From NCBI GenBank assembly GCA_030390025.1, contig CM059432.1:69380001-69444000 (forward strand): a stretch of 64,000 bases of DNA. Direction: 5' to 3'. Positions 1 through 60,290 of the stretch are shown piece by piece. How positions within the stretch are numbered: position 1 is the first letter of the stretch; the number at the start of each line of letters is the position of its first letter. This DNA comes from Squalus acanthias. Lineage: Eukaryota. The notes beneath the pieces are model-generated. The model ran no database searches, was not told the DNA's origin, and worked only from the letters and a program-made list of their open reading frames with translations. Position numbers and translations under genes: made by a program.

Positions 1-145
1 TTCACTTAGGAACCGCCCCCTTTTCAATTCACGAAGTGCCGGTTTCCCGCGCATGCGCAGTGCATGCAGGAAACCGGCAATTCGGGATCTAATACGCGAG
101 AGTACACAGTGCGTACTCTCGCGTATTAGGTTTAATTTTCGGGCC
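1..145. mobile_element. Right end of a Harbinger-type MITE (twin-hairpin family H), cut by the window edge
   Basis: Ends in aattttcgggcc (141-145 gggcc) and carries the same two hairpins as the end of the 657-1423 element (ccggtttcc..gcatgc gcagt gcatgc..ggaaaccgg, then ..gagtac acagtgc gtactc..). Confidence 0.7.
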
Positions 146-656: not shown

Positions 657-1423
657 GGGCCAGAAATTTGGTTTTCCGGCTTCCTGCGGGTGCAAGCATC
701 GCGCACGTACTTACCTACCGAGCCTGCCGTTGTGTTTTGGGCCCATGAGAACTTCGGGTCCTGGGCCTCCTCCAGCTGCCGGCGCGCAGTGCTTGCGTGT
801 CCCAGGGGCGCAGTTAGTTCGAAGTGTCCCCTGGGATCACGTGGGCCATGCATGGAGAGCCAATCCTAGCAGGCCATTTTCATTCATCGATTTGACAGGA
901 AGACCTGTCAAATCTATGAATTGAAATCGGCCCCAAAACAACACCTAAACTTCAAATAAATTTAACAAAAAACATCACATTTTTAAAATAACTATAAGTT
1001 AAATAAATTAACTACTTTAAACAAAAATTTAAATTTTTGAAAAAATTGAAATACTTTTTAACGGTGCTAAAAATAAACTTACCTTTCTTTAAAGTATCTA
1101 AAAAAGATAAACCTGTTGAAAATTTTTTAAATTGTAATTAATTAACCACTTACCTTGTTAAAAACGGGTCTTGCGCCTTCTTTTTAAAAGCGCAGCTTCT
1201 TCCATACTTACCTTCCCGGAGAAATCTGAAAAAAAAATGAAGTTCGCTGCGTGCGCGCAGCCTCTCTCGCGCACGCGGTTCACCTCTGAACCCCTCCCTT
1301 CACGAGACCGGAAGTTCCGGTTTCCCGCGCATGCGCAGTGCATGCAGGAAACCGGCACTTCAAGTGGCCTTACGGGTGAGTACACAGCGCGTACTCACCC
1401 GACAAGCGCCAAATTTCTGGGCC
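657..1423. mobile_element. PIF/Harbinger-type MITE, family H
   Basis: TIRs gggccagaaatttgg (657-671) and ccaaatttctgggcc (1409-1423), 14/15 match. GC-rich arms around an AT-rich centre. Homologous in reverse orientation to 6444-7983 and 59548-60290. Confidence 0.8.
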
Positions 1424-6443: not shown

Positions 6444-7983
6444 GGTGCAGAAATTCCGATCCCTACGGGTGTGTATGCGCTGTGTACTCACCCGTAGGGA
6501 CATCGGAAATGACAGTTTCAGGCATGCACTGCGCATGCGCTGGAAACTGGCATTTCCGATCTGTCAAAAAAGCTCTTGACAGATCCTCCAGCTGCCCGGG
6601 AGAAGGGCCTCTGCGGGCAGAGAGTTCCGCTTTTTGGAGACCCTCTGCCCACAGAAAACACTTACAATTCTTGCGCCTGGTAAAAGCAGGCGTAAGGGCT
6701 GCTTTTACCAGGATAAGAGTTGATTTATCATTTAAAAATACTTTAAAGAAAGGTAAGTTTATTTTTAGCCCCGTTAAAAACTTTAATTATTCTTTTCAAA
6801 AAATAAATTTTTTGTTTAAAATACTGAGGGGGAAAAATTCAGTTGGTTGCACCTCCCGTTAGCGCCTTAAGAGGGCGCTAATGGGGCGCAAAGCATCTAG
6901 CGCCCAGGCGCGGCGAAGTTTGCGCCACTCGCGAAATTAACTAGACATTTTGCGGCGGCGCTAAACACTACCGCCACGATCTCCTGCTCCGGCAGATCAT
7001 GACATCACTCGAGTGCGCAACGCCCCGGTATCGCCCCGGAGCGGATATTGAGTGGCGCCCCCTGCCTTACCGCCTGACGCTAGCAACGACAGGTTGAGGG
7101 GAGCGTTCTGCAGTCATGAAGGGAAAGGGGGAGCGCTATTTAAAGGTGACCGCTTCCTGCCTTTTATTGTTGGTGCCATTTTTGAACTACGCATTCTGAG
7201 AGAGAGAGGGAGAGACTTCTGGAGAGATTCAACGTTGTGTGAAGGAGTTTTGGGTACTGAGCAGCACTTTGCAGGTTCATTTTGATTTGCCATTCCTTGT
7301 ATCGATTTAGCAGAGATTGTGGGGGCTTTACTCTGAGCTCTTTGCCTGGTACTCTCAATTGTTCTTTCCAGCACATTTGATGTGCAGGTCTCTCCAGGCC
7401 GAGATTCAAGGCTGCAATGAGCAGGATGTGGATGGAAAGCAAGATTAACCATCCCCTTTAAGAACTGGCCCGTGCCATTGTGTGTGTGTTCCATTGCTGA
7501 CTGACATTACATGAGCTTCGCCAGCGCTCTGAGGTAGCGCCTCGCTCCTCAGCCTTTGCGCCTTAAGACAGGTGTGAAGCGCCTGATATAGCGCTGCAAT
7601 CACCTCCAGGGGCGATAAAAGTCAAGTTTGCAGTCGGTGGCGATAATTAGCGCCAATCTTTGCGCCCGGCCGATAATTGCGCCCCAAATGGGGCGATACT
7701 GAATTTCTCCCCCCTAATTTATTGTAATTTAAAGTCATTTTAAAAATGTGATTTAAAAAAAAAAATTATTTAAAGTTTTACTATGTTTTGGGGGTGATCT
7801 CTATTAATATATTTGACAGGTCACCCGCCTGCGAACCGCCTGTGACTCTGGGATACGTGGGCACTGCGCACCGGCAGTTTGGAGAGGCCCAGCAGCGGAA
7901 CTCTGCGCCTCCGGTCTTGGCGCAGATTTTTCCAGATCGCAGCCCTCCGCCCGCGGGAGGCCTGCGATCGGAATATCTGGGCC
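6444..7983. mobile_element. Harbinger-type MITE family H, interrupted by a nested MITE
   Basis: Termini ggtgcagaaattcc and ggaatatctgggcc. Colinear with the uninterrupted copy 59548-60290 apart from the 6828-7713 insertion and a deletion near 7820. Flanks att/ata. Confidence 0.85.
6828..7713. mobile_element. Harbinger-type MITE family K (about 890 bp), nested in a family H element
   Basis: TIRs gggggaaaaattcag and ctgaatttctccccc. The empty site atac-tta-att is visible in the sister host copy near 59940-59949. Near-identical to 58474-59367. Confidence 0.9.
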
Positions 7984-9559: not shown

Positions 9560-12500
9560 GGGGGAAAAATTGGGTTGCTTTGTGCCCTGTTAGCGCCCTG
9601 AGGGGGCGTTATCAGGGCGCAAAGCACCTAGCGCCCGGGCGCGGCGCCACTAACGCATCCTGCAAAATTCAGCAGGAGGTTAGCGGCGACGGTCATTGCC
9701 GTCATTGCCGTGCGCAGCGCCCCACTTGTGCCCCGGCCGCAAACTTCGCTTGCGCCCCCTGACCTACCGCCAGACGCTATGTCCAACAGGGTCAGGGTGC
9801 CATGTTTGCGGCCAGGGCGGCGCAAATTAAAGGGCTGGTGCCAGACGGAATTTGTTTTTGGGCCGCCTGCCAGCACCTGCCCGCTCTGGCATCCCCTGCG
9901 GGGTGCCGTCCGTGATCGGTCAGCCCGGCACTCCCCTTGAGTGCCGGGCTCTTTTGCCGGCACCCCGCTCCCCGGTGGTCCAGCAGGGCCCCGGTGCGTC
10001 TGCGCTAGGCCCCTCCCCTTTAATCATAGAGTCATAGAGTTATACAGCACAGAAAGAGGCCCTTCGGCCCATCATGTCCGCGCCGGCCATCAAGCCCTGT
10101 CTATTCTAATCCCATTTTCCAGCACTTGGTCCGTAGCCTTGTATGCTATGGCGTTTCAAGTGCTCATCTAAATGCTTCTTGAATGTTGTGAGGGTTCGTG
10201 CCTCTACCACCCTTTCAGGCAGTGAGTTCCAGATTTCAACCACCCTCTGGGTGAAAAAGTTTTTCCTCAAATCCCCTCTAAACCTTCTGCCCCTTACCTT
10301 GAAACTATGCCCCCTGGCTATTGACCCCTCTACTAAGGGGAAAAGTTCCTTTCTATCTACCCTATCTATGCCCTTCATAATTTTGTACACCTCAATCAGG
10401 TCCCCCCTCAGCCTTCTCTGCTCTAAGGAAAACAACCCCAGCCTGTCCAGTCTCTCTTCATAGCTGAAGCGCTCCAGCCCAGGTAACATCCTGGTGAATC
10501 TCCTCTGCACCCTCTCCAATGCAATCACATCCCTCCTATAGTGTGGTGACCAGAACTGCACACAGTATTCCAGCTGTGGCCTAACGAGCATTTTGTACAG
10601 CTCCATCATAACCTCCCTGCTCTTATATTCTATTCCTCTGCTAATGAAGGCAAGTATCCCATATGCCTTTTTAGCCACCTTATCTACCTGTCCTGCTGCC
10701 TTCAGGGATCTATGTACATGCACACCAAGATCCCTCTGATCCTCTGTCCTTCCTAGGGTCCTACCATTCATTCCCTTGCCTTGTTAGTCCTCCCAAAATG
10801 CATCACCTCACACTTTTCAGGGTTAAATTCCATTTGCCACTGTTCTGCCCATCTAACCAATCCGTCTATATCGTCCTGTAGCCTGAGGCTTCCTTCCTCG
10901 CTTTTTACCACTCCACCAATTTTCATGTCATCTGCGAACTTACTGATCATACCTCCTACATTCATATCTAAATCATTAATGTACACTACAAACAGCAAGG
11001 GACCCAGCACCGATCCCTGCGGTACACCACTGGACACAGGCTTCCAGTCACAAAAACAACCTTCGACCATCACCCTCTGCCTCCTGCCACTAAGCCAATT
11101 TTGGATCCAATGTGCCAAATTGCCCTGGATCCCATGGGCTCTTACCTTCTTGACCAGTCTCTCATGTGGGACTTTGTCAAAAGCCTTACTGAAGTCCATG
11201 TAGACTACATCAACTGCACTACCCTCATCCACACATTTAGTCACCCCCTCGAAAAATTCAATCAAATTGGTTAGACATGATCTCCCCCTGACAAAGCCAT
11301 GTTGACTATCCTTGATTAATCCTGGTGGAGACTAATTCTGTCCCTCAGAATTTTTTCCAATAATTTCCCTACCACTGATGTTAGGCTCACTGGCCTGTAA
11401 TTCCCTGGTTTATCCCTACTACCCTTCTCGAATAATGGTACTACGGTAGCTGTTCTCCAGTCCTCTGGCACCTCCCCTGTGGCCAGAGAGGTTCTGAAAA
11501 TTTGTGTCAGAGCCCCTGCAATCCCCTCCCTTGCCTCACACAGCAGCCTGGGATACATCTCGTCTGGGCCTGGGGATTTATCCACTTTTAAGCCCGCTAA
11601 AACCGTTAGTACCTCCTCCCTCTCAATACTAATTTGTTCAAGTATATCACAATCCCCCTGCCTGATTTCTATGCCTACATCGTCCTTCTCCATAGTGAAC
11701 ACAGATGCAAAATATTCATTTAAAACCTCACCTACATCTTTCGGTTCTACACACAGATTGCCACTTTGGTCCCTAATGGGCCCTACTCTTTCCCTGGTTA
11801 TCCTCTTGCCCTTAATATACTTATAAAACACCTTGAGATTTTCCTTTATTTTGCCCGCCAGTGTTTTTTCATGCCCCCTCTTCGCTCTCCTAATTTATTT
11901 TTTAAGTACCCCCCTGCACTTTCTATACTCCTCCAGGGCTTCCACTGTTTTTAGTCCTTTGTATCTGCCAAAAGCCTCCCTTTCTTTCCTAATCCATTCT
12001 TGTATATCCCTTGACATCCAGGGTTCCCTGGGCTTGTTGGTCCCACCCTTTACGGGAACATGTTGCCATTGTACTCTCTCTATTTCCTTTCTGAAAGACT
12101 CCCATTGCTCTGATGTGGACTTTCCTACAAGTAGCTGATCCCAGTCCACTTTGGCCAGATCCTGCCTTATCATATTAAAATCGGCCTTCCCCCAATTTAG
12201 AACCTTTATTTCCGGTCCATCTTTGTCCTTTTCCATGACTACCTTAAATCTCACCGAATTATGGTCACTGTCACCAAAATGCTCTCCTACTGACACATCT
12301 ACCACTTGCCCGGCTACATTCCCTAGAATTAGGTCCAGTACCGCCCCATCTCTTGTAGGACTTTCTACATGCTGGCTCAAAAAGCTTTCCTGGATGCACT
12401 TTAAGAATTCCGCACCCTCTAAGCCTTTCACACTCTGACTATCTCAGTTAATATTGGGGAAGTTGAAATCCCCTACTATTATTACCCTATTTTTTCTACA

Positions 12501-13938
12501 CTTCTCTGAGATTTGCCTACATATCTGTTCCTCTATCTCCCCCTGACTGTTTTGGGACCCATAGTACACTCCCAGCAAAGTGCTTGCCCCCTTTTTGTTT
12601 TTAAGTTCTACCCATATGGCCTCATTAGAGGAACCTGCTCAGATATCATCCCTCCTTACAGCAGCAATTGACTCCTTGATTAATATTGCGACACCCCCTC
12701 CTCTTTTACACCCCCCCTCTGTCTCACCTGAAGTTTCTATACCCCGGAATATTGAGCTGCCAGTCCTGCCCCTCCGTCAACCATGTCTCTGTGATAGCAA
12801 CAATATCATACTCTCATGTGTTCATCAACACCTTCAATTCATCTGCCTTACTCGCAAGACTCCTTGCATTAAAATAAATGCCATCCAGCCTTGCCATACT
12901 CCCTTGTGCCATTACATATTTGCTCTGCCTTCCAGGCTGACTTGTTTTTTCCTCTATATTTGGCTGTGCATCACCCCCTACTATAGCTCCACTCCGTATC
13001 CCATCCCCCTGCCACGTTAGTTTAAACCCCCCCCAACAGTACTAGCAAACCTCCCCGCAAGGATGTTGGTCCCGTTCCGGTTCAGGTGCAACCCGTCCGA
13101 CTTGTACAGGTCCCACCTTCCCCAGACACAGACCCAGTGATCCAGGAAACTAAAGCCCTCCCTCCTGCACCAACTCTTTAGCCACGCATTCATCTGCTCT
13201 ATCCTCACTAGCACGTGGCACCGGGAGTAATCCAGAGATTACAACCTTTGAGGTCCTGCTTTTTAATCTGCTACCTAGCTCCCTAAATTCTTGTTGCAGG
13301 ACCTCATCCCTCTTTCTACCCATGTCGTTGGTACCAATGCGAACCACGACCTCTGACTGTTCGCCCTCCCCCTTCAGAATGCCCTGCAGCCGTTCAGTGA
13401 CATCCTTGACCCTGGCACCAGGGAGGCAACATGCCATCCTGGAGCCACGTCTGCGGCCACAGAAACGTCTATCTGTTCCCCTTACGATAGAATCCCCTAT
13501 CACTATTGCTCTCCCACTCTTTTTCCTCCCCTCCTGTGCAGCTGAACCACTCGTAGTGCCACGAACTTGGCTCTTGCTGCATTCCCCTGAGAAACCATCT
13601 CCCCCAGCAGTATCCAAAATGGAAAATCTGTTGGAGAGGGAGATGGACCCAGGGGACTCCTGCACTACCTTCCTAGTTCTTTTACTCTGTCTGGCGGTCA
13701 CCCATTTCCTGTCTGCCTGTGCACTCTTTCAGGAGGGCGGCCTGTAGTACCGCGGCACGACGTACCGACGCGCCTGGCGCTGTTGCATGTAGCGTCGCGA
13801 TATTCAATGTGAGTGCCCCAAGAGGGAGGGGGAGCGCTTCCAGTAGCGCCCCGCCTCCTGCTTGAGGTGCTACTATTCAATTTCGGGCGCAGGGGTGCTA
13901 ACTTTTTCGGGGTGCTAAAAGTAGCCAATTTTTCCCCC
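9560..13938. mobile_element. Harbinger-type MITE family L, split by a CR1 insertion
   Basis: TIRs gggggaaaaattgg and ccaatttttccccc. Halves 9560-10026 and about 13729-13938 rejoin to match the intact copy at 44530-45276. It sits inside an older CR1 3' fragment (about 9470-9559 and 14094-14350). Confidence 0.85.
10024..13728 (-). mobile_element. CR1 LINE with partial ORF1 (SGNH/GDSL esterase) and ORF2 (APE-RT), frameshifted
   Basis: ORF1 motifs IVIGDSIVRG, LPGARVKD, RIGTND, DGLHLNRNG (13017-13701). ORF2 motifs GDSDHNSV, GNYRPVSLTS, MDFSKAFDKV, GVPQGSVLGP, FADD. (ctatgact)n tail at about 10024-10042. Confidence 0.95.
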
Positions 13939-17291: not shown

Positions 17292-17983
17292 GGGGGCGAA
17301 ATTGGGTGCCTTTGCACCTCGGGGCACTAACGGGGCGCAAATGTCTTTGTAACCGGGCACGGCGCTGACATCAACTCCCACCATATTCGGCGGGAGTTTT
17401 GCGGTGGCACTACGGTGTTGCACCCCAATCTCCTTCGCCCGAGATCGTGACGTCATTGCCATGCGCATCGTCCCGGTAGCACACCAGACTCGAAATTGAC
17501 TTCCGCCCCCGGCAGCAGCGCTAGTCAAAAACACCGACAGCTGCAGGAGGCGTGCATCAAAAAAAAAACCGCACCTTTCTTGTTCCAGTTTTTTTCGCTG
17601 GTTCCTGCCTGCGATCGATCCGCCCGGCACTCTGCTTGAGAGCCGGGCTGATCGCGCGGGATCGCGGCTGCCTTGGTGGTCCAGGTAGGTACTTTTTAAA
17701 TTGCAGAGCCTGCAGCGATGGCCCTTCCCTTTAAGTGATGGGAAGGAGCCTTTGAACGCGGCAGCACTGCAGGGCCCAGTATGCAGCGCTGTTGTAGTCT
17801 CCGCCCCGCCTGCTTCCGATTGCGCTCCAAGAAGGAAGTGGAGTGCTTGATTTAGCGCGCCACTTTCTTCCTGGAGCGCAAAACCGAATTTTTTTAAAGT
17901 TTAGCAACATTAGTGCCTGCCGCTAATTTTCTCAACTTTTAAAATTTAGTACCCCAAACAGGGCTATAATGAATTTCTCCCCC
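17292..17983. mobile_element. Harbinger-type MITE
   Basis: TIRs gggggcgaaatt and aatttctccccc. Flanks aaa/aga. CpG-rich, with left-arm motifs shared with families K and L. Confidence 0.75.
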
Positions 17984-20189: not shown

Positions 20190-20645
20190 CCCTCCTCCAT
20201 AACATTGGGGACAGGCTGTGCTGGTGGCAGTTCTTGGGATTGTGGGGTATGAGTCGTGATTGCTAGAGTTTGTTGGTAGGTGAGTGATGGGGTGTGGTGC
20301 ATTGAGCAGTGTGTGAGGCTTGTGATGAAGATGGTGGGATATGACATTTGAAGCTGCATTCACTCATCTTGATGCGGAGATGCCGGTGTTGGACTGGGGT
20401 GGACAAAAATGAGAAGTTGCACAACACCAGGTTATAGTCCAACAGTTTTATTTAAAATTACGAGCTTTCGGAGCTGCTGCCCCTTCGTTAGGTAGAGGTA
20501 CAATCTACCTGACGAAGGGGCAGCAGCTCCGAAAGCTCGTAATTTTAAATAAAACTGTTAGACTATAACCTGGTGTTGTGCGACTTCTCATTTTTGTTCA
20601 CTCATCTTGACCACTCATGTGAGGTCATTAAACGTTTTGCAACTG
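20190..20645 (-). pseudogene. Remnant of a Harbinger Myb/SANT-like gene (end of exon 1 plus intron)
   Basis: Minus strand reads tgc aaa acg ttt aat gac ctc aca tga gtg gtc aag (CKTFNDLT*VVK). The intron gtgaatgcagcttcaaa...agcctcacacactgctcaatgcaccac is homologous to 32597-32670. Confidence 0.6.
20373..20596. mobile_element. Penelope-like retroelement-derived inverted repeat with hammerhead-ribozyme-like cores
   Basis: Arms of about 94 bp (20403-20496 and 20504-20597) with 3 mismatches and a 7-nt loop. 14-bp TSD ttcactcatcttga (20359-20372 and 20597-20610). Core ctgacga-a-ggggc agca gctcc-gaaa at 20509-20534. Confidence 0.8.
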
Positions 20646-22162
20646 GAGGGATCAGAGTGTCAGCTCGGACTGGAGGGGTCAGAGTGTCAGCTCGGATTGG
20701 GAGATCAGAGTGTCAGCTCGGATTGGGAGATCACAGTGTCAGCTCGGACTGGGAGATCAGAGTGTCAGCTCGGACTGGGAGATCAGAGTGTCAGCTCGGA
20801 TTGGGAGATCAGAGTGTCAGCTCGGATTGGGAGATCAGAGTGTCAGCACGGACTGGAGGGATCAGAGTGTCAGCTCGGATTGGGAGATCAGAGTGTCAGC
20901 CCGGACTGGGAGATCAGAGTGTCAGCACGGACTGGGAGATCAGAGTGTCAGCACGGATTGGGAGATCAGAGTGTCAGCTCGGATTGGGAGATCAGAGTTT
21001 CAGAATGGATTGGGAGATCAGAGCGTCAGCACGGATTGGGAGATCAGAGTGTCAGCACGGATTGGGAGATCAGAGCGTCAGCACGGATTGGGAGATCAGA
21101 GTGTCAGCACGGACTGGGAGATCAGAGTGTCAGCACGGATTGGGAGATCAGAGTGTCAGCTCGGATTGGGAGATCAGAGTTTCAGAATGGATTGGGAGAT
21201 CAGAGTGTCAGCTCGGATTGGGAGATCAGAGTTTCAGAATGGATTGGGAGATCAGAGTGTCAGCTCGGATTGGGAGATCAGAGTTTCAGAATGGATTGGG
21301 AGATCAGAGCGTCAGCACGGATTGGGAGATCAGAGTGTCAGCACGGACTGGGAGATCAGAGCGTCAGCTCGGATTGGGAGATCAGAGTGTCAGCTCGGAT
21401 TGGGAGATCAGAGTGTCAGCACGGATTGGGAGATCAGAGTGTCAGCTCGGATTGGGAGATCAGAGTGTCAGAATAGATTGGGAGATCAGAGTGTCAGCAC
21501 GGACTGGGAGATCAGAGTGTCAGCCCGGATTGGGAGATCAGAGTGTCAGCACGGACTGGGAGATCAGAGTGTCAGCACGGATTGGGAGATCAGAGTGTCA
21601 GCACGGACTGGGAGATCAGAGTGTCAGCACGGATTGGGAGATCAGAGTGTCAGCACGGACTGGGAGATCAGAGTGTCAGCACGGACTGGGAGATCAGAGT
21701 GTCAGCACGGATTGGGAGATCAGAGTGTCAGCACGGATTGGGAGATCAGAGTGTCAGCACGGACTGGGAGATCAGAGTGTCAGCACGGATTGGGAGATCA
21801 GAGTGTCAGCACGGACTGGGAGATCAGAGTGTCAGCACGGACTGGGAGATCAGAGTGTCAGCACGGATTGGGAGATCAGAGTGTCAGCACGGACTGGGAG
21901 ATCAGAGTGTCAGCACGGATTGGGAGATCAGAGTGTCAGCACGGATTGGGAGATCAGAGTGTCAGCACGGACTGGGAGATCAGAGTGTCAGCACGGATTG
22001 GAGATCAGAGTGTCAGCACGGATTGGAGATCAGAGTGTCAGAATGGATTGGGAGATCAGAGTGTCAGCACGGACTGGGAGATCAGAGTGTCAGCTCGGAT
22101 TGGAGATCAGAGTGTCAGCACGGATTGGAGATCAGAGTGTCAGAATGGATTGGGAGATCAGT
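20642..22162. repeat. 26-bp minisatellite, about 58 copies (gggagatcagagtgtcagcacggatt)
   Basis: Directly visible tandem array with variant units (ctcgg/cacgg, act/att, tttcagaatgg) and a few 25-bp units near the right end. Confidence 0.98.
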
Positions 22163-22323
22163 GCTATCATGAATGGGGGAACCAGAGTTCCAGCACACAC
22201 TAATTCTGGCAACTTCCCTACTGATTTTATACTAAAAAAATTTTTATACTACACATTTTGTGTTGGCGCAAAGCCAAAACCAATGCGTTTAAACAAAATG
22301 TACAGTATAACCAGTCCATAATA

Positions 22324-28674: not shown

Positions 28675-29096
28675 TAACACTCTAACCATAATATTATTTC
28701 AGTTTGATGGAATCACCAGTACTTTACTGTCACATTCTGTTCTTAGGTGTTAATGGGCAAAACTGTGTATTCCTGCCTATAGTTGTCAGACAGACACACA
28801 AATGAATTGGTTGTCACCATCAGAGCTGAGATAACTAGCATGCATCACCCTCATTATAACCTTGAAGTTAATGCAAATAGATGTTAGTTGGTCCCACAAC
28901 TAACTCCCTGTTTTTTTTCCCCTGTCAACTCTCGGTGCATTGCATTCCTTTTTAAAGTAGACGCTTAGAGGTGAGACTGGAGGGTTTGTTTATCTGAGTA
29001 CAAACCTGTCATATTTTACAGATCTATTTTAGTTAAGATATTCTGCAGGAAACTTATAAAGAGATAAATTTCCTCAGCTAGATCAGCTGGTCTTGA
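28675..29096. repeat. Composite inverted duplication (copies of 22324-22618 and 29569-29712)
   Basis: 28675-28837 = RC(22440-22618); 28834-28984 = RC(29569-29713); 28984-29096 = RC(22324-22435). Confidence 0.9.
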
Positions 29097-29129
29097 TGAC
29101 AAGTAATTAATTTACCTTTGTTTAACTCT

Positions 29130-29586
29130 ATTCCTTCTGCATCCGTCCCTGGAAAAAGCTCTCCCCCAAGTCACTGATAACTGCGCTTTCAAACTCCCAG
29201 CCTTTGGCCCTCAGTTTGCCATGTTACTTCTGCAGCTGTCTATCTATCTGCTCAAACCACTCCCTCATATCCATCTTTAATGCCATGTCCCCAGTAAAAT
29301 TGTTACTCTCACCCACCCTGATTGTTGCTCTTAGTATGGACTCCATCATCGCGCCCTCAAATCCAAGGGGCGCAGCCTTGAACGTATCTGGTACACAACT
29401 GATTTAACAATCTATTGCCTTATCGGGCTGGATCACATCAAGCGCTATCAGGCCCAGTTCTCCTCTGCCAAAACTGTTCACTGCGTCAGGAACATCCTGG
29501 AATGCAAAGATAGCCCTCGGCTTCTTTTCTCCACCACCAACCATCTCCTTAAACCGCTCTCCCCTGCTCCCTCCAGCCTCACCTCT
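29130..29586 (+). mobile_element. Decayed L2 LINE internal fragment
   Basis: C-rich L2-type sequence, e.g. aggaacatcctggaatgcaaagatagccctcggcttcttttctccaccaccaaccatctccttaaacc (frame ILECKDSPRLLFSTTNHLLKP). Confidence 0.55.
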
Positions 29587-29894
29587 ACTTTAAAAAGTCA
29601 AGCAATGCACAGAGATTTGACAGGCAAACAAAAAGACAGGGAATTCATTGTGGGAGCAACTAACATCTATTTGCATTAACTTCAAGGTTATAATGAGGCC
29701 GATGCATGCTAGTAGTACGGCCTCATTAAATCTGTTAATTTCTTATGCTGCTAAGTCCGGCATGCAAGGCTGTCATTGCAGTGGTCTACCTGTCTGTTTC
29801 CACACTGCAGTGCTCTGCCTGCAGGGGGCTGCTCACCGAGTGTAAAATGAGGGAATCGATCAGCATTTACTTGTTCATGCTCATTAAATATGTG

Positions 29895-30018
29895 GGGGTA
29901 GATTTTTAACTTACTGTCCATTGAAATCAATGGAAATTTAAAACTGGGCAGTTTCTATGATGATTGACAAATCAGGAATGTCAGCTCTACACCCAGGCGG
30001 TAAGTCAAAAATCTACCC
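29895..30018. mobile_element. Short MITE with central palindrome
   Basis: TIRs gggtagatttttaactta and taagtcaaaaatctaccc. Internal ccattgaaatcaatgg. Confidence 0.65.
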
Positions 30019-30085
30019 TGTGGTCTTTCTCGCTGATGAAGTATTGCACAGTGCCCTCATGTGTCACATTATCTACTGCTCAACT

Positions 30086-30379
30086 TAGGTTTGCCAACTC
30101 TGGTTGGACATATTCCTGGAGGTTTCATCACACGACCTCGCATCTCCAACTACCCAAATAGCCTATTTTCCCATCTCCACTATTTATCTAACTAACTAAT
30201 AAATGAAAGTGTTCAAAGAAAATGAAAAAAAAAACACAATTTATTTAATGCCCCTAAATGCTGATTGATTCCCTCCTGTTACACTCGATTTTTCTCCTGG
30301 GTTGCTCACAACAGTGTCCAGGAGATTAATCTTTAATTCCTGGAGATGCCAGGACAATCCTGGAGGGTTGGCAACCCTA
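30086..30379. mobile_element. hAT (Blackjack-type) MITE
   Basis: TIRs taggtttgccaac and gttggcaacccta. 8-bp TSD gctcaact/gctcagct (7/8). Subterminal cctggag repeats. Confidence 0.85.
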
Positions 30380-31976: not shown

Positions 31977-34236
31977 GGCCTAGAAATTGGATAGCGCAAG
32001 AAAACAGGCACGGGCAACGCAACGTGAGATACGCCTGTGCCCGTTCAAAAAGTGCAGGCAGCACGTCAACTTCATACTGCCAGCTAATTATCATGATTGT
32101 AGCGCACAGCCTAGCGCCGAACGTGCTGCTGACAGGCTGTGCGTCAGCAGGTGGCCGAAGTTCGCATTGCTCGAGCGAGGTTAGCTTTACTTAAAGCTAG
32201 CTTGCTCCTCTTAAAGGCAGTCTGCATCTCTTAAAACTGAGCTGCTGTCTGCAGATAAAAAAAATGTAAAGTGCTTCACCACCAGGCAGTCTGCACCTTC
32301 TAAAGGTGAGCTGCATTCTGCTGATGAAAAACAGTAAAAGTGGTTCAGCGCTAACACAAATGGCTCAACAGACCAGGGAAAAGGCACCCAGGGTCTCGGA
32401 TGCAGCATTCAAGCTTTGTGCAGGGGGTCAACACTGGAAGAGAGGTCCTCTACCCACAGGGGGCACTGAGGCCCTCCAGAAAGAATGATGTGGGACCAGA
32501 TCAACGAGGCCTGTCACGGCCAGCAGTGTCGCCCCCCCCAGGGCCTGGCTCCAGTGCCCAAAGAAGCTTCATGACCTCAGACAGTGGTCAAGGTCAGTGA
32601 ATGCATCTTCAAAAGCCGTCTCCTACCAACTGCACCACTAGCCTCACACACTGCTCAATGCACCACATCCCCATCACTCACCTACCAACAATCTCTACCA
32701 AACACGAGTAACACCTCACATTCCTAACTTCACCTCACCCCCTTGGAGGAGACAGTGCTGGCCATTCTTGGCAGGGGCATGGCTGAGCCCTTGGCTAGCC
32801 ATGGGGCTGAAAGAATACAAGATGCTGGTATCCTCATTCGTTATTCTCCTTCTCACATCTCACTTCCCCCTCATCCTACAATACCTTCTGATTTACAAGC
32901 TGCATAGTGTAAGCATGCACCTCTTGCTTAACCCCTCTCCCCTCATCACAACCTTACCCCTGTGCCTTACTCATTTCAGACACCCAAGAAATCCAGCTTG
33001 CCCAGCCAGTGGGTCAACAAGAAGGCGAGGAGAGTGAAGAAGAAGAAGAAGAAACACTGTCACTCGATTTCACACACCCAGCCACGAGCTCCTCAAGGTT
33101 GTCCTGCAAGGCCACCTGCAGTGTCCCCCACTGAAAGTCAACAGCCTTCACCAGCTATGCTGCAGCCACTGGGGTAGCACTGTGTAACAGCACTAGGATA
33201 GGCTAAGGCACATGCAAGGCACTCACTAAGGGAATGCACAAGAGTGGTTTAGTTGATTTTTTGATGTAATATTGGATGCATATATGGATAAAGTTGGATT
33301 GAAAAGTTTGCTTTGTGGTGGCTTTTATTTCAGCATTGTGGCCAAGAGGACGCTGTGATGGTCAGTAACAGAGTGAACAGTAAGGTGTGGGACAAATGTT
33401 GAAAGGAGAATTGGGGTAGTGGCTTGGTGCAATACATTAAAAAAATTATTAAAATGTACAGGGAGTGCAGTGAGTGCTGCTGGACATTGGGGTTGTGTTC
33501 ACTGGTACAGCAGATGGATGATTCGATCCCATATATCCCAGCCAGAAAGGGTTTGTCTGGGTTGCCTCATTCCTTCCGCTTCCTCCTCTTCTGCTTTTTC
33601 CTCTTCTGCTTCTTCGTCTTTCTCCTCCTCCTCCTTCTGCGAGCAGTTTGTCCCCTTTGCTGCCTCTGCTCCATATCTATGTCATGCTGCAGCCCAAGGG
33701 TGACTGCAACTAGAGCCCCCAGGACTGGGAGCAAGTGGTGTTCTTAGAGGCCTTCCTTTAAGAGCCAAAGCCTTGCAAATGTCCAGCAGCACTCATTGCA
33801 CTCCCTGCACATTTTAATAATTTTTTTAATGTATTGCACCAAGCCACTACTCCAATAAAATGTAAAGAAACCAGTACAAAAGCAAAAATTTAAACTTACC
33901 TGAAAGTTGTGTGTGTCCTTTTAAAAAACGCTGGCAGCGGGCCTGTCGTACTGCTGTACGTACGTTCTGCCATGCGTGGTTTGAAGAGGGTGTTCGTAAG
34001 AGCGGCAACGTCCAAAATCTCAGATCATGCATCAATTCAGCGTTGCACTCCGATTGACGTCATGATCTGTATCATTTAACTATGCGAAGCGAGCGCAGGC
34101 AATGGCAGCGCTGCCGAACTGCCCAAAATGGCGGCCGTCGCATTGCGCACTGGAAGTGGGCGGAAGTGAAGCAGCCGCCATTTTTTCTTCCAAACCGACC
34201 TTAACGTCCGGCACAAACGGCTCCAATTTCTGGGCT
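31977..34236 (+). mobile_element. Non-autonomous Harbinger with decayed Myb/SANT-like gene
   Basis: TIRs ggcctagaaattgg and ccaatttctgggct, flanks tca/tga. MAQQTREKAPRVSDAA start at 32360. WLQC..K.F.DL-like block near 32545-32595, followed by a gt donor. Confidence 0.7.
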
Positions 34237-34322: not shown

Positions 34323-35216
34323 GGGGTAGAAATTAGGTCGCGCCCCATTTGGGGCGCAAATATCGTCCGGACGCAAATATTAGCGCCTGGCGCTAATTAT
34401 CGGCACTGACGGGAAACTTCACTTTTACCGCCCCGGGAGGTGAGTGGAGCGCTAAAGCAGGCGCTGCACACCTCTCTTAAGGCGCAAAGGCCGAGCAGTG
34501 AGGCGCTAACTCGGAGCGCTGGCGAAGCTCATGTAATGTCAGTCAGCAATGAAACACACACACAATGGCACGGGCCAGTTCTTAAAGGGGATGGTTAATC
34601 TTGCTTTCCATCCACATCCTGTTCATTGCTGCCTTGAATCTCGGCCTGGAGAGACTTGCACATCAAATGTGCTGGAAAGAACAATGGAGAGCACCAGGCA
34701 AAGAGCTCAGAGTGCAGCTCCCACGGTCTCTGCTAAATCGATACAAGGAATGGCAAATCAAAATGAACCTGCAAAGTGCTGCTCAGTACCCAAAACTCCT
34801 TCCCACAATGTTGAATCTCTCCAGAAGTCTCTCCCTCTCTCTCTCAGAATGCGTAGTTCAAAAATGCCACCAACAATAAAAGACAGGAAGAGGCCCCCTT
34901 TAAATAGCGCCCCCCCCCAGCCCCACAGCGATTGATAGCGTTCCAGTCTTCTGGTCGTTGGAAGCGCCAGGCGGTAAGGCAGGGGGCGCCACTCAATTTC
35001 CGCTACGGGGCGCCCCAAGGGCGTTGCACCATGGAATGACGTCACAATCTGCGCGCGCAGGTGGTCGCAGCGGTAAGTTTTAGCGCCGCCGCACAATCTC
35101 AAGTTAAGTTCTCGAGCGGCGCAAACATCGCTGCGCCCGGGCGTTAGCGGCTTTGCGCCCCATTAGCGCCCTCTTAAGGTGCTAACGGGTGGTGCAACCA
35201 AGTGAATTTTTACCCC
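34323..35216. mobile_element. Harbinger-type MITE family K, divergent subfamily, opposite orientation
   Basis: TIRs ggggtagaaatt and aatttttacccc. Perfect TTA TSD. Homologous to 6828-7713. Confidence 0.9.
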
Positions 35217-36163: not shown

Positions 36164-37153
36164 GGCCGGAATTTTCTGCAGGTAGGCGGGGGCCTCCAAG
36201 GTGGGCGGAAAACCTAGGAGGCCGTTTCCTGCAGGCCCAGCCGACTTTAACAGCAGGGCCTGATTTGCATGTGAGGCCTCAGTTTCCCGCCTGCAGCCAG
36301 CCAGATTGAGAGGCTGGCTGGCTGCGGGCGGGTAGGCCTGCAGCTACAGAGAAGGAGCGATGGCTCGGTCCGGAGGAAGGATGGGTGGGGGGGAGGGGAT
36401 CGGCATGGACTCAGTCGGGGATTGCGGAGCTCGGTCGGGGATCGAGGGGGAGGGTTGGGGATTGGCGGTGGGGATGGTCGGAGGATCAGCGGTGGGGGAG
36501 GGTTTGGCTGGGAATCGGGGATTGGAGTCGGCCAGGGATCGGGGAGTCGCCCGGGGATCGGGGGGCTGGTGCGGGGTGGGGGTGGGGGTGGGGGTGGCTT
36601 GGCCGGGGATCGGGGAGTCGGCCAGGGAATGGGAGGGTTGGGGATCAGGGGGTCGGCAGGAGCATCGGGGGGAGGGGGTGGAGAGAGGATCAGGGCCAGC
36701 CACCAGAGGATTGTGGCTGGCCTCAGCATCATCGGTGGGGTGGCGGAGTAGGCCTCATGGTGGCGATTGGAGGCCTTCTGGTGGGGTCTCTGATCGCGGG
36801 GGGGTGGGTTAGGCAGGGACCCTGGATCCAGGTATAAAGCCACTTATCTCCTGGATGCAGCAGTCTCCGCCTCGTATTAACTGCCGGGTTTCACTAACTG
36901 TGTGAAACCCGTCCAAAAGCCGTTAAATTCAAAATGGAGGTGTAAAAAGAGGCTTCCAACCTCATTATCATATTAAATTGACGTACTGCCCCCTGGGAGC
37001 AGGTTGATTGCCCGCCCCCCGTCCCCACCCCGCCTCCGTTAGAATCGGAAGTGGGTGGGTTGGAGGTGGGATCAGGTCGGGAATCCCATTTTTAACAATT
37101 TAACTGCCCTCAGGTTCCAAACTCACCCCTTTTTTTAGGGGAAAATTCCAGCC
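36164..37153. mobile_element. Harbinger-type MITE with a G-rich core
   Basis: TIRs ggccggaattttc and gaaaattccagcc, flanks aat/att. Strongly G-skewed interior at 36360-36810. Confidence 0.75.
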
Positions 37154-44529: not shown

Positions 44530-45276
44530 GGGGGAAAAATTCGGTTGCTTTGCGCCGCCCATTAGCGCCCCAAGGTGGCGCTAACGGGGTGCAAATCCCC
44601 TAACGCCTGGGTGCAGCGCTGCTAATGACTCCCATAAAATTCAGCGGGTGGTTAGCGGCGGTGGTAGCAGGTAGCGCCCCGCAGCACTGCGCCTCCGGCG
44701 ATGATGTCATCGCCGTGTGCAACGCCCCGCTCGCGCCCCGGCCACAAGCTTGGCTCACGCCCCCTGACCTACCACTGGACGCTATGTCCGACGGGGTCAG
44801 GGGGGCGTTTTTGCGGCCGGGGCGGCGCAAATTAAAGGGCAGGTGCCGGGCGACCATTTTTTTTGGGCCGCCTGCCAGTACCTGCCCCTTCTGGCTTCCT
44901 CCTGCGGGGTGCCGGCCGCGATTGGTCAGCCCGGCACTCCTCTTGAGTGCTGGGCTCTTTTGCCGGCACCCCACTCCCTGGTGGCCCAGCAGGGCCCCGG
45001 CGCGCTGCGCTGACCCCTCCCCTTTAATCAGGGTAGGAAGGCCTGCAGTACCGTGGCGCTACGTGCCGACATGCGTGGCGCTGTTGCACATAGTGCCGCG
45101 ATATTCAATGGGAGCGCCCCAAGAGGGAGGGGGAGCGCTTCCAGTAGCGCCCCGCCTCCTGCTTGGGGCGCCACCATTCAATTTCGGGAGCGGGGGTGCT
45201 AACTTTTTCGGGGCGCTAAATGTATCACCCCGGCGAAGTTAACGCCCCAATGGGGGCGCAAGCTCATTTTTCCCCC
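44530..45276. mobile_element. Harbinger-type MITE family L, intact
   Basis: TIRs gggggaaaaat and atttttccccc, flanks ata/tta. Colinear with the 9560-13938 halves. Confidence 0.88.
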
Positions 45277-45396
45277 TTAGTCTTTCTTTCTTTGTTGGTT
45301 ATAATGATCACCTGTGAAAGTGCAGTCTAGTTCCTAGTGAAAGTTCTTGGAACAAAATTGTACCTCATTCTGAATTAAGTGGCACTAAGGAACCAA

Positions 45397-47350: not shown

Positions 47351-49555
47351 TTTTGTTATTCTTTCTTTCTATATGTTTTCTGTATTCCATTGCTTATTGG
47401 ACTATATCCCTAAACAGGGTGAATAGCTCCTCCACAGAAAGTTACCACCACAGGCTTTCGACACAGCCAGTGTTTATTGATATAAACCAAAGTGAACTTT
47501 AATCTGTCAAGTGTTCTTATTCACATTAGATTCTCCTGACAAATCCTAATAGTACATGAGTAACACAGGAACTATTATCCACAAATAAGAACCTCGGGGT
47601 AAATGGTCCAGGTTAAAACTGTTGATTGATAATATAATTAGTACTGTCTTGTTTTACAAGTTTCCCTCCTTCCCAAACACAGCCAAAGGCATATAAATAA
47701 TGTTAAAGCCACCGAGAGAAAACACAGGGAAGTGATTTATCTTCAGTTTGGAGGATGCTGATTTTCCAGTTCTGGGACGGAAAGACATGGTTTTCATTTT
47801 GTCGATAAAATTCTGACACCCGTAAACTGAGTTAATTCACAGAGAGCGACATGACCAATATGTACTCGCTGGCCTCAAAATTGCAGTGTGTGATATTAGT
47901 GTATAATACCTAATGCATTTTATATGAAATTCCTTTCTCTGCTTTTAATGGAGGCATTCATCCTTTTATTTGAAGTGGATTAGTGCCTCCTTTTAAAATA
48001 ACAGCCAATTGAATTTCACATGAAACCATTAAGTGTTTCTTCACTAATATTACACAGATAAATTTCAAGGGATTAATAGGGGTAAAAAATCAGCTTCTGT
48101 GTTCCTAGAGTGCTCCAGAACTGCATCACAAAATTGCACACCACCTGAACTGCGAGACTGACTGTTGAAATAACTTTTGGGAAAATGATGGTCTGGTTGG
48201 TCTGCTGAAAAATATAAATGTCAATGAGTTTTTCCATTTTGTTAATGGACAAATTTAATATTGTCCCAGGACATAATTCTAGTTCTGGCCTCCAAGAAAG
48301 AAGGGAGACATTCAAGTGCTGGAGGCAGTGCAAAGAAGAGTCATGTGGCTAATCCCTACTTTCAGGAGTCTGAATTATGAGGAAAGACTGGGGCCGCGAT
48401 TTGGCCAGCCGTGGCGAGTCCGGTGCGGCCAGATTAGGCAGCGGCCTCAAACCCCGCTCCCATCTTCATCCCGCCTCCTCCAAGTGATTTTGCCCTGATT
48501 GGGCTTGTTAAGCCCGCCGTGTGAGGTTCCCGGCCAATTAAAAGGAAGCGGGTCTGATGACATCATCTGATGACACGTCATCAGCCGGTTTCCTTTAAGG
48601 GACCATGTCCACATTCATTTTCACAGTTGTGCTGTCAGTGTTCTACAGCATTGAGGTGCTGCAAACACTGACAAGCACTGCACAGAGGTGCATGGCTGCA
48701 CCTAGGCTCTCCCATGACTCCCTCCATATGCTTATAGAGGGAGTCACAGCATGCAGGGAGATTCTCTTCCCTTCCAATGGGCGGAAGAGACCTCCTCAGG
48801 ACACCAACTCAGCCTGGTTACACATTGCACAGGAGGGCACAAGCAGGGATGTTGTCAGGAGGACCTGGTTGCAGTGGCGCAAACCTTTCAATGATCTCAG
48901 TAGTTCACAAAACGTTACTGCAAAGCCACACTCAACCTCATCCTCCTGTGCCACTCATCACATCCCCATCACTCTGCCTTCCCTACCCTACTCCTGCACA
49001 TCCTTACTCACACCAACTTACCTTGCACCTCCACCATCGCTCTCTATGTTATCAATTCCCCATCTCACTAGCCACCCCTCACACTCACCCTCTTCCTTGT
49101 CCAATCATTCAAACTAACACACAAGGGTAGGTACTTGTGTGTTTTAGCCAATGTTCGTGTAAAGTTCCTGTTAATGTGTTGTCAAGCATTGAAATCCTTA
49201 TTTTCACTACTTTTCCTTTTTGGACAGATTTGTGTGTACCTTTGAAAGTGTCTTAGTGAGTTCCAGTGAATGATGAGACATAACGGCCGCGATTTTCCGA
49301 GTGGAGGCGGGTTGGAGGCGGCTTTGATGTTCGGCGGGTTCCGGTCCCGCTGCCAGTTTAATCCGCCCTGAAATAACGATTTTTGCTTAAGTGGGCTGAA
49401 TAAGCCCGTCGTGCACGATACCCGGCCGAATCAGTGGGTTCGGGTCTGCTGCTCGCCTCTGCTGACGTCTTTCAGCCAGCTGCATTTAAGGGGCCCATGC
49501 AGCCTTGTTTTTGATCAATCCTATTCTGCTGCTTCTCGGTGTGGCACATATTGAA

Positions 49556-54436: not shown

Positions 54437-54499
54437 TATTGTACAGATGGTGTATGGAGTGTTAAGAAGGTGGCAGCCACATGTGTTTGCTTCATAAAC

Positions 54500-55703
54500 T
54501 TAAGTGAATCTGGCATGGATTAGTGCATCCCTTGCATCACGGCCAGCAATGTGCTTGCGTGCTGGTGGAGCTAGCACATCTGCCTCCGCAAGGTCTTCCT
54601 CCTCCGAGGAGGCTGTGTGCTGAGCCACTTGTTCCTCAGGCAGCGGTAAGCCACGATGCTGTGCGATGTTGTGCAGTGCACAGCAGACCACGATGATTCT
54701 GGAGACCCTGGCTGGTGAGTAATGTAGGGCTCCACCAGATCTGTCGAGGCATCTGAATCGCATTTTGAGTAAGGCGATGGTTTGCTCGATGATGGCTCTG
54801 GTGGAAATGTGGCTCGCATTGTAGCGCTCCTCAGCTTCATTTGATGGCCTCCTCAATGATGTCATTAGCCACGTCTACAGGGGATAGCCCTTGTCTCCAA
54901 GTAGCCATCCAGAAAGTTGGGTTGGTGGACTGAAGAGCTGAGGCACAGTAGACTGCCGCAGGATGAATGAGTCATGGCAACTGCCAGGGAACTTGGCGCA
55001 AACATGCATAATGTTCTTCCTGTGGTTACACACCAGCTGGACATTAAGGGAGTGGAAGCCCTTGCGGTTCACAAATATAGCTGGGTTGTGATGGGGTGCC
55101 CTAATGGCCACATGTGTGCAGTCTACTACGCCCTACACCCTTGGCAAGCCTGCCATATTTGCAAAGCCAACCGCACGTGCGGTTACACTTGCTTCATCCG
55201 TGGAGAATTGGATGTAATTGTGCCTTTGCAAAGAGGGCATCGGTAACCTGCGTGATACAAGTGTGTGTGGCCGACTGTGAGATGTCGCTGATGTCTGCTG
55301 ATGATCCCTGGAAGGACCCTGAAGCAAAAAAATTGAGGGCGGTGATGAATTTGACAGCCACTGGTAAGGAGTGTCCACCCGCTCCTCTGGGCTCCAGGTG
55401 TTGATGCAGCATTGCGCTGATGTCAGCGACTGCTTCTCGCGAAAGTCTCAGCCTGCTTTGGCACTGCTACTCACTCATGTTGAGGAAACTCATCCTCTGC
55501 CTGTAAACCCTGTGTTGTGGGTATCTCCTGCGGTGAGGTGCAGCCCTGCGCTGACGCCCTCTGCACTGTGCAGCATCAGGTGGGTGAGGAGGAGATTGGC
55601 GCTCCTGTTGTTGCTGCTGCTGTTGTGCCTGGTTCTGCTGCTGCCGCGACTGCTCTTCCTCCGATTCTGAGGACCAGGATGAGAGGATATAAATGGTTCC
55701 CAT
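54500..55703 (-). pseudogene. Harbinger DDE transposase (HARBI1-like), full length with stops and one frameshift
   Basis: [97 protein letters not shown]. Confidence 0.95.
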
Positions 55704-58473: not shown

Positions 58474-59367
58474 GGGGGAAAAATTCAGTTGGTTGCGCCT
58501 CCCGTTAGCACCTTAAGAGGGCGCTAATGGGGCGCAAAGCATCTAGCGCCCAGGCGCGGCGAAGTTTGCGCCGCTCGCGAAATTAACTAGACATTTTTGC
58601 GGCGGCGCTAAACACTACCGCCACGATCTCCTGCGCCGGCAGATCGTGACGTCAGTCGAGTGCGCAACGCCCCGGTAACGCCCCGGAGTGGAAATTCAGT
58701 GGCGCCCCCTGCCTTACCGCCTGACGCTAGCAACGACAGGTTGAGGGGAGCGTTCTGCAGTCATGAAGGGAAAGGGGGAGCGCTATTTAAAGGTGACCGC
58801 TTCCTGCCTTTTATTGTTGGTGCCATTTTTGAACTACGCATTCTGAGAGAGAGAGAGAGAGACTTCTGGAGAGATTCAACGTTGTGTGAAGGAGTTTTGG
58901 GTACTGAGCAGCACTTTGCAGGTTCATTTTGATCTGCCATTCCTTGTATCGATTTAGAAGAGTCTGTGGGGGCTGCACTCTGAGCTCTTTGCCTGGTACT
59001 CTCCATTGTTCTTTCCAGCAGATTTGATGTGCAGGTCTCTCCAGGCCGAGATTCAAGGCTGCAATGAGCAGGATGTGGATGGAAAGCAAGATTAACCATC
59101 CCCTTTAAGAACTGGCCCGGGCGATTGTGTGTGTGTTCCATTGCTGACTGACATCACATGAGCTTCGCCAGCGCTCTGAGGTAGCGCCTCGCTCCTCGGC
59201 CTTTGCGCCTTAAGACAGGTGTGAAGCGCCTGATTTAGCGCTCCAATCACCTCCAGGGGCGATAAAAGTCAAGTTTGCAGTCGGTGGCGATAATTAGCGC
59301 CAGGCGCTAATCTTTGCGCCCGGCCGATAATTGCGCCCCAAATGGGGCGATACTGAATTTCTCCCCC
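58474..59367. mobile_element. Harbinger-type MITE family K
   Basis: TIRs gggggaaaaattcag and ctgaatttctccccc. Perfect ATA TSD. Confidence 0.92.
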
Positions 59368-59547: not shown

Positions 59548-60290
59548 GGTGCAGAAATTCCGATCCCTACGGGTGTGTACGCGCTGTGTACTCACCCGTA
59601 GGGACATTGGAAATGCCGGTTTCAGGCATGCACTGTGCATGCGCTGGAAACCGGCATTTCCGCTCTGTCAAGAAAGCTCTTGACAGATCCTCCGGCTGCC
59701 CTGGAGCAGGTCCTCTGCGGGCGGAGAGTTCCGCTTTTTGGAGACCCTCCGCCCGCAGAAAACACTTACAACACTTACAGTAAGGCCTGCTTTTACCAGG
59801 ATAAGAGTTGAAAAAAAGTTTTAAAAAAATGTTTCCACTGATTTATCATTTAAAAATACTTTAAAGAAAGGTAAGTTTATTTTTAGCCCCGTTAAAAACT
59901 TTAATTATTTTTTTCAAAAAAAAATAATTTTTGTTTAAAATACTTAATTTATTGTAATTTAAAGTCATTTAAAAAATGTGATTTAAAAAAAAAATTATTT
60001 AAAGTTTTACTATGTTTTGGGGGTGATCTCTATTAATATATTTGACAGGTCTTCCTGTCAAATGTATGAAGGGAGATTCCCTTCTCTGATTGGCTCCCCA
60101 TGGCCCACATGATCCCAGGGACGCTGCGATCCGCCTGCGCCTCTGGGATACGTGGGCCCTGCGCACCGGCAGTTTGGAGAGGCCCAGCAGCGGAACTCTG
60201 CGCCTCCTGGGAGCCCTCCGGTCTTGGCGCAGATTTTTCCAGATCGCAGCCCTCCGCCTGCGGGAGGCCTGCGATCGGAATATCTGGGCC
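59548..60290. mobile_element. Harbinger-type MITE family H, intact
   Basis: Termini ggtgcagaaattcc and ggaatatctgggcc. Perfect ATT TSD (59545-59547, 60291-60293). Confidence 0.9.

Follow-up and report, generated by a model that had tools for sequence, protein, structure and literature searches.

Family H elements and their genomic surroundings

The window analyzed here, a stretch of 64,000 bp of Squalus acanthias DNA, contains four copies of family H, non-autonomous PHIS (PIF/Harbinger-type) elements of ~750 bp with terminal inverted repeats (TIRs) of 15-18 bp that start with GG (Table 1). The TIR and flank anatomy bears out the PIF/Harbinger MITE label given by a first-pass annotation of this DNA; as TIRs and 3-bp flanks are present, the elements do not belong to the Helitrons/Helentrons or the IS200/IS605-like elements. 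The 3-bp target-site duplication is perfect in one of the three full copies (ATT/ATT), the other two being flanked by ATT/ATA and AAT/ATA. It is probably AWT, and the flanks AAT, ATT and ATA are consistent, over three full copies only, with the ANT duplication of the Pangu group. The elements are non-coding (743-767 bp), and the three stop-to-stop frames of at least 120 aa that overlap copies 2-4 each cross an element end.

Family H is dispersed in many copies and is carried in contigs of at least four organisms. Words of copy 2 are present in 20 sequencing runs, from organisms coded A-G, and contigs of four of these runs (organisms A, B, D and F) were aligned on region 1235-1435 of copy 2 at a likeness setting of 80%, giving 6089, 1663, 834 and 184 contigs, the first of these numbers being that of run X1, across 201 bp of copy 2. 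The aligned runs are contigs, presumed to be DNA, from which strand, level and arm-to-arm linkage are unreadable. The four window copies align gaplessly from hairpin 1 to the element end and represent three subfamilies (copy 1; copy 2; copies 3 and 4). Copy 2 looks mosaic, with hairpin 1 and the stretch inward of it like copy 1, and hairpin 2 like copies 3 and 4, which suggests exchange between subfamilies. Its minus strand has five splice-donor-like GGTRAG words at 710-1200, inward from the hairpin end, and a GGTRAG near 1080 lies inside a 32-bp block identical in copy 4.

A second Harbinger-type group in the window has several hairpins in each member, with one copy split by a LINE and one nested in copy 3. 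Two of the five frames scanned match Pfam, as relics of a DDE_Tnp_4 transposase and of a Myb/SANT gene. The regions 54440-57124 and 48560-50100 look like degenerate Harbinger-type coding relics with internal TIR-like ends, and two Myb/SANT-like stretches share a small palindrome, at 48715 and 49599. Self-BLAST of the window gave no link between family H and the DDE or Myb/SANT relics, which may belong to other families. Another Harbinger-type element, at 36164-37153, has AAT/ATT flanks, four short hairpins and a G-rich internal tract, and unclassified elements with long inverted ends (84, 79 and 33 bp) lie at 28834-29713, 33410-33856 and 29837-30287. A 203-bp near-perfect palindrome at 20399-20601 (98-bp arms, 96% complementary, 7-nt loop) is directly followed by a tandem array at ~20640-22200.

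A scan of the whole window yielded 42 hairpins of score at least 9, compared to 4, 3 and 9 in three block shuffles. The TIR elements, 8,090 bp or 13% of the DNA, hold 26 of the 42 hairpins (p about 1e-13). When the bounds are relaxed to take in relics and fragments, 13,858 bp hold 34 of the 42. In the second Harbinger-type family, homologous subterminal hairpins of 28 bp lie at 17820, 45112 and 13811; 3 of the 28 pairs are compensated and several are uncompensated. The word TTGAC(A/G)G recurs at 892-911, 6561-6582, 59664-59687, 60042-60061 and 56148-56176, both in arms of unrelated hairpins within these elements and in the flank of the transposase relic. A scan of the window for bacterial promoters and terminators, irrelevant to this genome, gave nothing.

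Table 1. Family H copies, their hairpins and other Harbinger-type features in the window
Feature	Position	Strand	Description
Copy 1	1..145	+	Terminal part only, remainder before the window; TIR about 131-145, flank AAT
Copy 1 hairpin 1	33..83	+	15-position outer stem, 3x1 interior loop, 6-bp inner stem; motif 53-67
Copy 1 hairpin 2	89..129	+	Perfect 17-bp arms, 7-nt loop; motif 102-116
Copy 2	657..1423	+	Full, 767 bp; TIRs 14/15 identical; flanks AAT/ATA
Copy 2 internal hairpin	882..921	.	18-bp arms; copy 4 homologue at 60026-60077
Copy 2 third small hairpin	1277..1292	+	6 bp
Copy 2 hairpin 1	1311..1361	+	Motif 1331-1345
Copy 2 hairpin 2 core	1373..1401	+	11-bp arms; motif 1380-1394
Copy 3	6444..7983	-	Full; TIRs 15/18; flanks ATT/ATA; nested element 6828-7713 inside
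Copy 3 hairpin 2	6460..6500	-	Motif 6473-6487
Copy 3 hairpin 1	6506..6556	-	Motif 6522-6536
Copy 3 third hairpin	6558..6585	-	10 bp; not alignable to copy 2 third hairpin
Copy 4	59548..60290	-	Full, 743 bp; TIRs 15/18; perfect ATT/ATT target duplication
Copy 4 hairpin 2	59564..59604	-	17 positions, one A.A mismatch, 7-nt loop; motif 59577-59591
Copy 4 hairpin 1	59610..59660	-	Motif 59626-59640
Copy 4 third hairpin	59664..59687	-	10 bp
Hairpin just inside opposite TIR	60242..60276 (copy 4), 7935-7969 (copy 3)	.	Hairpin scan
Second Harbinger-type group	17292-17983, 44530-45279, 9560-10026 + 13729-13938, 6828-7713, 34323-35216, 58474-59367		TIRs starting GGGGG, TTA/ATA flanks
Harbinger-type DDE transposase relic	54503..54874	-	Pfam DDE_Tnp_4, E 7e-13
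Context feature	48599..49114	+	Inside relic region 48560-50100

Twin hairpins share an apex motif at a fixed distance from the element end

On either strand, each family H copy forms two adjacent hairpins, with folding z-scores of -4.3 to -12.6 for RNA and -5.9 to -12.0 for DNA (four copies, two strands, 60 shuffles each). The twin hairpins reported just inside one TIR of all four copies are thus present, with the sequences and coordinates originally given. A third hairpin just inward of hairpin 1, absent from the first-pass annotation, is poorly conserved: certain subfamilies have it in broken form, copies 3 and 4 carry a replacement, and in copy 2 the variants 1286A/1287G break it in about a quarter of the depth of run X1. 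The hairpin just inside the opposite TIR of copies 3 and 4 was not found in copy 2.

The apices of both hairpins carry the 15-nt motif RTRCRCAGYGCRTRC, which starts exactly 93 and 44 bp from the element end in all four copies. The cagYgc apex motif described previously holds and extends to 15 nt, with an invariant distance to the end. The motif is exact at 8 of 8 apices and absent elsewhere on both strands of the 64 kb; allowing one mismatch, 12 matches were found against 0.18 expected, a comparison that is partly circular in that the pattern was derived from these copies. At the opposite end there are only look-alikes with two mismatches (782; 7871). Aligned directly, the two apices of copy 2 agree at 10 of 15 positions, with A/G differences at the other five. 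As each apex is near-palindromic, a homology in inverted orientation fits equally well (also 10 of 15 in copy 2); the direct alignment was kept, its differences being all A/G.

A pattern scan for both apices together gave no match in viral contigs, metagenome contigs or prokaryote genomes. The hairpin-1 apex alone occurs at no fewer than 111 metagenome loci, and all of those listed have only 4-8 of the 15 outer-arm pairs. These loci were rejected as homologues, the second motif being present in 0 of the 111 listed. Among the metagenome matches listed, 78 of 111 are one unrelated repeat family, at loci below 50% GC (for example L002, L004 and L006).

Hairpin arms covary across subfamilies

Comparison of hairpin 2 between copies 1 and 4 confirmed differences at positions 1, 2, 3, 4, 9 and 11 of the 5' arm, all six of which are compensated in the 3' arm. 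A seventh difference in the 3' arm, at the partner of position 13, is unmatched and creates an A.A mismatch common to copies 3 and 4, which is visible in the letters quoted by the first-pass annotation though unremarked there. The swaps follow an outward gradient, four of the six being the four outermost pairs. Coincidence may account for some of the outer hairpin-2 pairs in copy 2, whose end is decayed or rare (the aligned depth falls after 1402). In the outer stem of hairpin 1, for which covariation was also claimed, one pair is G.A in copy 1 and hence no clean swap; copy 2 has G-C here, and copies 3 and 4 have A-T. In every one of the four copies, 13-14 of the 15 outer-arm positions of hairpin 1 are paired.

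Over 42 pairs in four copies, 90.5% of the 168 cells are paired, and 11 of the 42 pairs changed on both sides, with no pair altered on a single side. None of 500 shuffles reached either value and slid registers yielded 0-3 both-sided pairs, a control that ignores relatedness among four related sequences (three subfamilies) from which the structure itself was drawn. The core stems of copies 3 and 4 differ at 4 of 64 positions, of which one pair is compensated (1319:1353, both CpG) and two changes are uncompensated; the compensated pair is compatible with chance.

The contigs add further states of the arms. The pair 1324:1348 has complementary variants in all four runs (1324T at 7, 29, 9 and 10%; 1348A at 10, 47, 23 and 22%), with linkage unreadable and 1348A in excess of its partner in every run. 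In every one of the four runs, clipped contig ends contain hairpin 2 of the copy-1 type, which therefore is a subfamily and no one-off event, and also further hairpin-2 5' arms whose 3' partners are not visible. For hairpin 1 of the copy-1 subfamily, unlinked contig ends give a hint, and only a hint, of an extra C-G/G-C swap beside the retained G.A mismatch.

Pairing is maintained across subfamilies, with support at the level of single columns from the contigs of the four organisms, though not strictly. Among the contigs on copy 2, T.C is the majority state at 1316, where the pairing G makes up only 24-48% of depth. The A.A at 1395 of copies 3 and 4 (3-8% of depth, 47 contigs of run X1) and the G.A at 1358 (3-8% of depth) are markers of amplified subfamilies, and a subfamily at about 31% of the X1 depth has 1303-1308 changed without matching partners. 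High-copy subfamilies without pairing, which the first-pass annotation had named as evidence against its view, were not seen, but successful subfamilies with single mismatches exist.

Stems, loops and spacing change slowly

Between subfamilies in the window, the core stems are identical at 52-59 of 64 positions, compared to only 16-28 of 51 in the linkers and outer arms. For copies 2 and 4, identity is 59/64 in the stems and 420/661 in the rest. Variable positions in the contigs (at least 4% in any run, 1291-1401) number 6 of 64 in stems, 1 of 12 in loops and 22 of 35 in linkers (Fisher p 3e-8), a count that under-reads the stems, as divergent hairpin-2 arms are clipped at 80% likeness and contigs drop rare variants. 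No indel reached 4% in the 6089, 1663, 834 and 184 aligned contigs. Of the earlier proposal that pairing rather than sequence is maintained, the first half survives, as pairing is kept; the second does not, for the sequence (the 15-nt motif and the slow stems and loops) and the spacing are kept too.

The hairpins might be wholly neutral, that is, palindromes that arose by chance and are kept going by template switching or by conversion within the element, in the absence of selection, which we consider highly improbable. Template switching can create and maintain perfect stems (PMC8794818), and hairpins are scattered through many Harbinger-type elements of the window. However, neutral concerted evolution predicts background rates and unprotected loops and spacing, whereas stems, loops and spacing are all conserved here. 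As neutral correction of the arms should leave a background rate and spare neither loops nor spacing, some selection presumably acts on this end. Moreover, most private stem changes in copies 3 and 4 have gone uncorrected.

The pattern of change favors a DNA-level process

It is conceivable, though very unlikely, that the hairpins are an RNA structure (a small-RNA precursor, a 5' UTR element or a guide-like RNA) selected in transcripts. The predicted folds are strong, and in all four copies the RNA energy is lower for the strand that reads inward, which gains G-U wobbles at the apices; the excess of 1348A could be a wobble as well. However, on the forward strand, as read in the first-pass annotation, the four sequences contain no one-sided G-U change. 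Transversions, for which there is no wobble route, make up four of the six swaps between copies 1 and 4, and 7 of the 11 covarying columns include a transversion. On the reverse strand, G-U would account for only 4 of the 16 unpaired cells, and at least one of the four reflects private decay (G makes up 96-99% of depth at 1363). In addition, Rfam gave no match at the gathering score in the 64 kb, and a fixed distance to a DNA end has no obvious RNA rationale. Given the lack of one-sided G-U changes, the transversions and the non-wobble mismatches in amplified subfamilies, an RNA fold is unlikely, and on balance a DNA-level process is favored. The lack of wobble is not general, since two of the four shared mismatches in the second Harbinger-type family are G.T or A.C. 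The single-stranded DNA, cruciform or RNA function suggested at first is accordingly narrowed: RNA is disfavored by the pattern of change, and a function of a DNA hairpin or cruciform is putative.

Some mismatches are poorly seen by mismatch repair. The idea that the surviving mismatches are of this kind fits family H (T.C, G.A, A.A and C.T) and fails in the second family, and was rejected. RNA stems usually change via G-U (PMC8794818), and the same paper describes template switching as a process that makes multi-base compensatory changes in one step, fixing stems and keeping loops. Covariation alone is thus no proof of a functional structure, because template switching makes compensatory changes of several bases at once (PMC8794818).

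A putative spacing-locked binding cassette

The reading that we favor, tentatively and at somewhat less than an even chance, is a putative spacing-locked protein-binding cassette whose arms are matched by template switching. The last ~115 bp of the hairpin end would be a cis-acting module of a non-autonomous PHIS/Harbinger-type element. This module holds two 15-bp quasi-palindromic motifs at fixed distances from the TIR and changes slowly. The motifs and the inner arms would be symmetric binding sites in double-stranded DNA, the most likely binder being the Myb/SANT partner of the element, as Myb/SANT proteins are known to bind Harbinger ends, and only lineages with the motifs in register with the TIR would be amplified. 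During replication or gap repair the nascent strand may fold back, one arm being copied from the other, which is possible because each site is a near-palindrome. Such fold-back copying would produce both-sided changes in single steps and keep the freer outer arms matched. The covariation would then mostly be a footprint of mutation, superimposed on selection for sequence and spacing, with no need for an extruded hairpin. The single-step signature supports this account: the lack of forward one-sided G-U changes, the transversions among the swaps (4/6) and the tolerated mismatches at 1316, 1395 and 1358. Against the binding-site view, partner sites would be expected at both ends, and the opposite end has only the two-mismatch look-alike; in addition, the slow stems fit selection on pairing equally well. 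So few of the differences between copies 3 and 4 are compensated that correction is not fast in inserted copies and would need to occur in the amplifying lineage. The data in hand fit selection on arm sequence and selection on pairing alike, and cannot separate them.

Alternatively, the arms may extrude as DNA hairpins, a cruciform or a single-stranded fold, with transposition proteins recognizing the stem and the loop motif; pairing itself would be selected, and template switching would merely supply variants. We regard this as rather unlikely, though it accommodates much of the pattern: the 13-14 of 15 paired outer-arm positions of hairpin 1 in the four copies, the 11 of 42 pairs swapped on both sides, the slow stems with their conserved loop motif, 3x1 interior loop and spacing, the 3 of 28 compensated pairs in the subterminal hairpin of the second family, and the concentration of 26 of the 42 strong hairpins in the 8,090 bp of Harbinger-type elements. 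It is at odds with the mid-stem mismatches (1316, 1358, 1395) of amplified subfamilies, the unpartnered changes at 1303-1308 and the loss or replacement of the third hairpin. To our knowledge, PHIS transposition is cut-and-paste on duplex DNA with no single-stranded step, which also counts against extrusion. That a eukaryotic DDE cut-and-paste (PHIS) end is read partly as folded DNA, with two extruded hairpins displaying one loop motif at fixed distances from the TIR, much as single-strand transposons and integron sites are recognized, is unlikely.

A quite unlikely alternative, which also invokes matching of the arms by conversion, is that the module is a promoter from the autonomous parent, with hairpin 1 as a symmetric array of host-factor sites, kept as transcription or open chromatin helps the element. 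The stretch 1327-1337 at the apex resembles an NRF1 site and 1308-1315 in the arms an ETS/GABP site, and in copy 2 the donor-like GGTRAG words number five on the inward-reading strand versus one on the other. However, copies 3 and 4 have only one versus one, the outer GGAA core is gone from both arms in the copy-1 subfamily, whose pairing was kept, and hairpin 2 is without NRF1- or ETS-like sites. Furthermore, the hairpin-1 apex word stands without the arms or the second motif at all 111 metagenome loci listed, and is thus a common word.

The pattern itself is real, well supported and more sequence-constrained than the first-pass annotation held, and a function of the fold itself is putative and unproven.

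Comparison with known systems

End hairpins with covarying arms and conserved loops or bulges are known from the subterminal hairpins of IS200/IS605, the 3' hairpins of Helitrons and integron attC sites. These systems move as single-stranded DNA by means of HUH or tyrosine enzymes, and have no TIRs flanked by 3-bp duplications. As family H has TIR/TSD anatomy, the likeness is at most one of working, and only if the ends are extruded. The zebrafish element Harbinger3_DR has a CWG target duplication, unlike family H. No requirement for hairpin pairing is reported for it or for Harbinger3N_DR in what is available of the accounts (Sinzelle et al. 2008, via PMC2836001 and PMC13668399).

A likeness in anatomy is seen in Harbinger-N12A_XT, a Harbinger MITE of Xenopus tropicalis with internal palindromic repeats (PMC12676858). 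Like family H, it is a non-coding vertebrate Harbinger element with TIRs starting GGG and palindromic internal repeats, which form hairpins near both ends as read from the printed consensus. Unlike family H, it is 342 bp long and largely symmetric, the comparison being by description and printed consensus, and the available text describes no covariation, shared apex motif or fixed spacing (PMC12676858). The first-pass annotation knew of no such feature in PIF/Harbinger MITEs; internal palindromes of a vertebrate Harbinger MITE were already in print, but no account of their covariation was found. In the open literature, as far as its texts are accessible, we found no paper on covarying subterminal hairpins in Harbinger MITEs, and within the same scope nothing on shark-type Harbinger MITE ends or the motif RTRCRCAGYGCRTRC.

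The ANT target duplication defines the Pangu group of PHIS (Han et al. 2015, PMC4482050). Family H flanks are consistent with this duplication, and Pangu TIRs, of 11-40 bp, likewise begin with GG. Membership is decided by the transposase, and the family H copies have none. The same paper reports a Myb/SANT gene for NuwaI/II, not for Pangu, and the relics in the window include Myb/SANT (PMC4482050). For mPing, mobility is tuned by internal sequences, yet these revealed no shared sequence-specific enhancer (PMC9921582), which counts against the binding-cassette reading. Coral MITEs have conserved internal regions, with hairpins unmentioned in the available text (PMC2872659). Compensatory mutation by template switching (Monttinen and Loytynoja 2022, PMC8794818) explains both-sided multi-base changes with the loop kept. 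The case made in that paper concerns RNA genes, not transposon ends, and by itself leaves slow change and fixed spacing unexplained.

Implications for Harbinger-type elements

Little has been mapped of the cis-requirements at animal Harbinger ends, and why some MITE lineages amplify is an open question. Family H offers a concrete module, in which two 15-bp motifs lie 49 bp apart and 44 bp from the end, within covarying arms. It is also a natural setting in which to tell selection on structure from template-switch mutation as the source of covariation in a non-coding repeat, and the difference bears on every case in which covariation is taken to prove a functional fold. If the folded form is indeed recognized, this would be new for PHIS-class transposons, and such a folded-end rule would explain the covarying hairpins in several Harbinger-type families of this genome.
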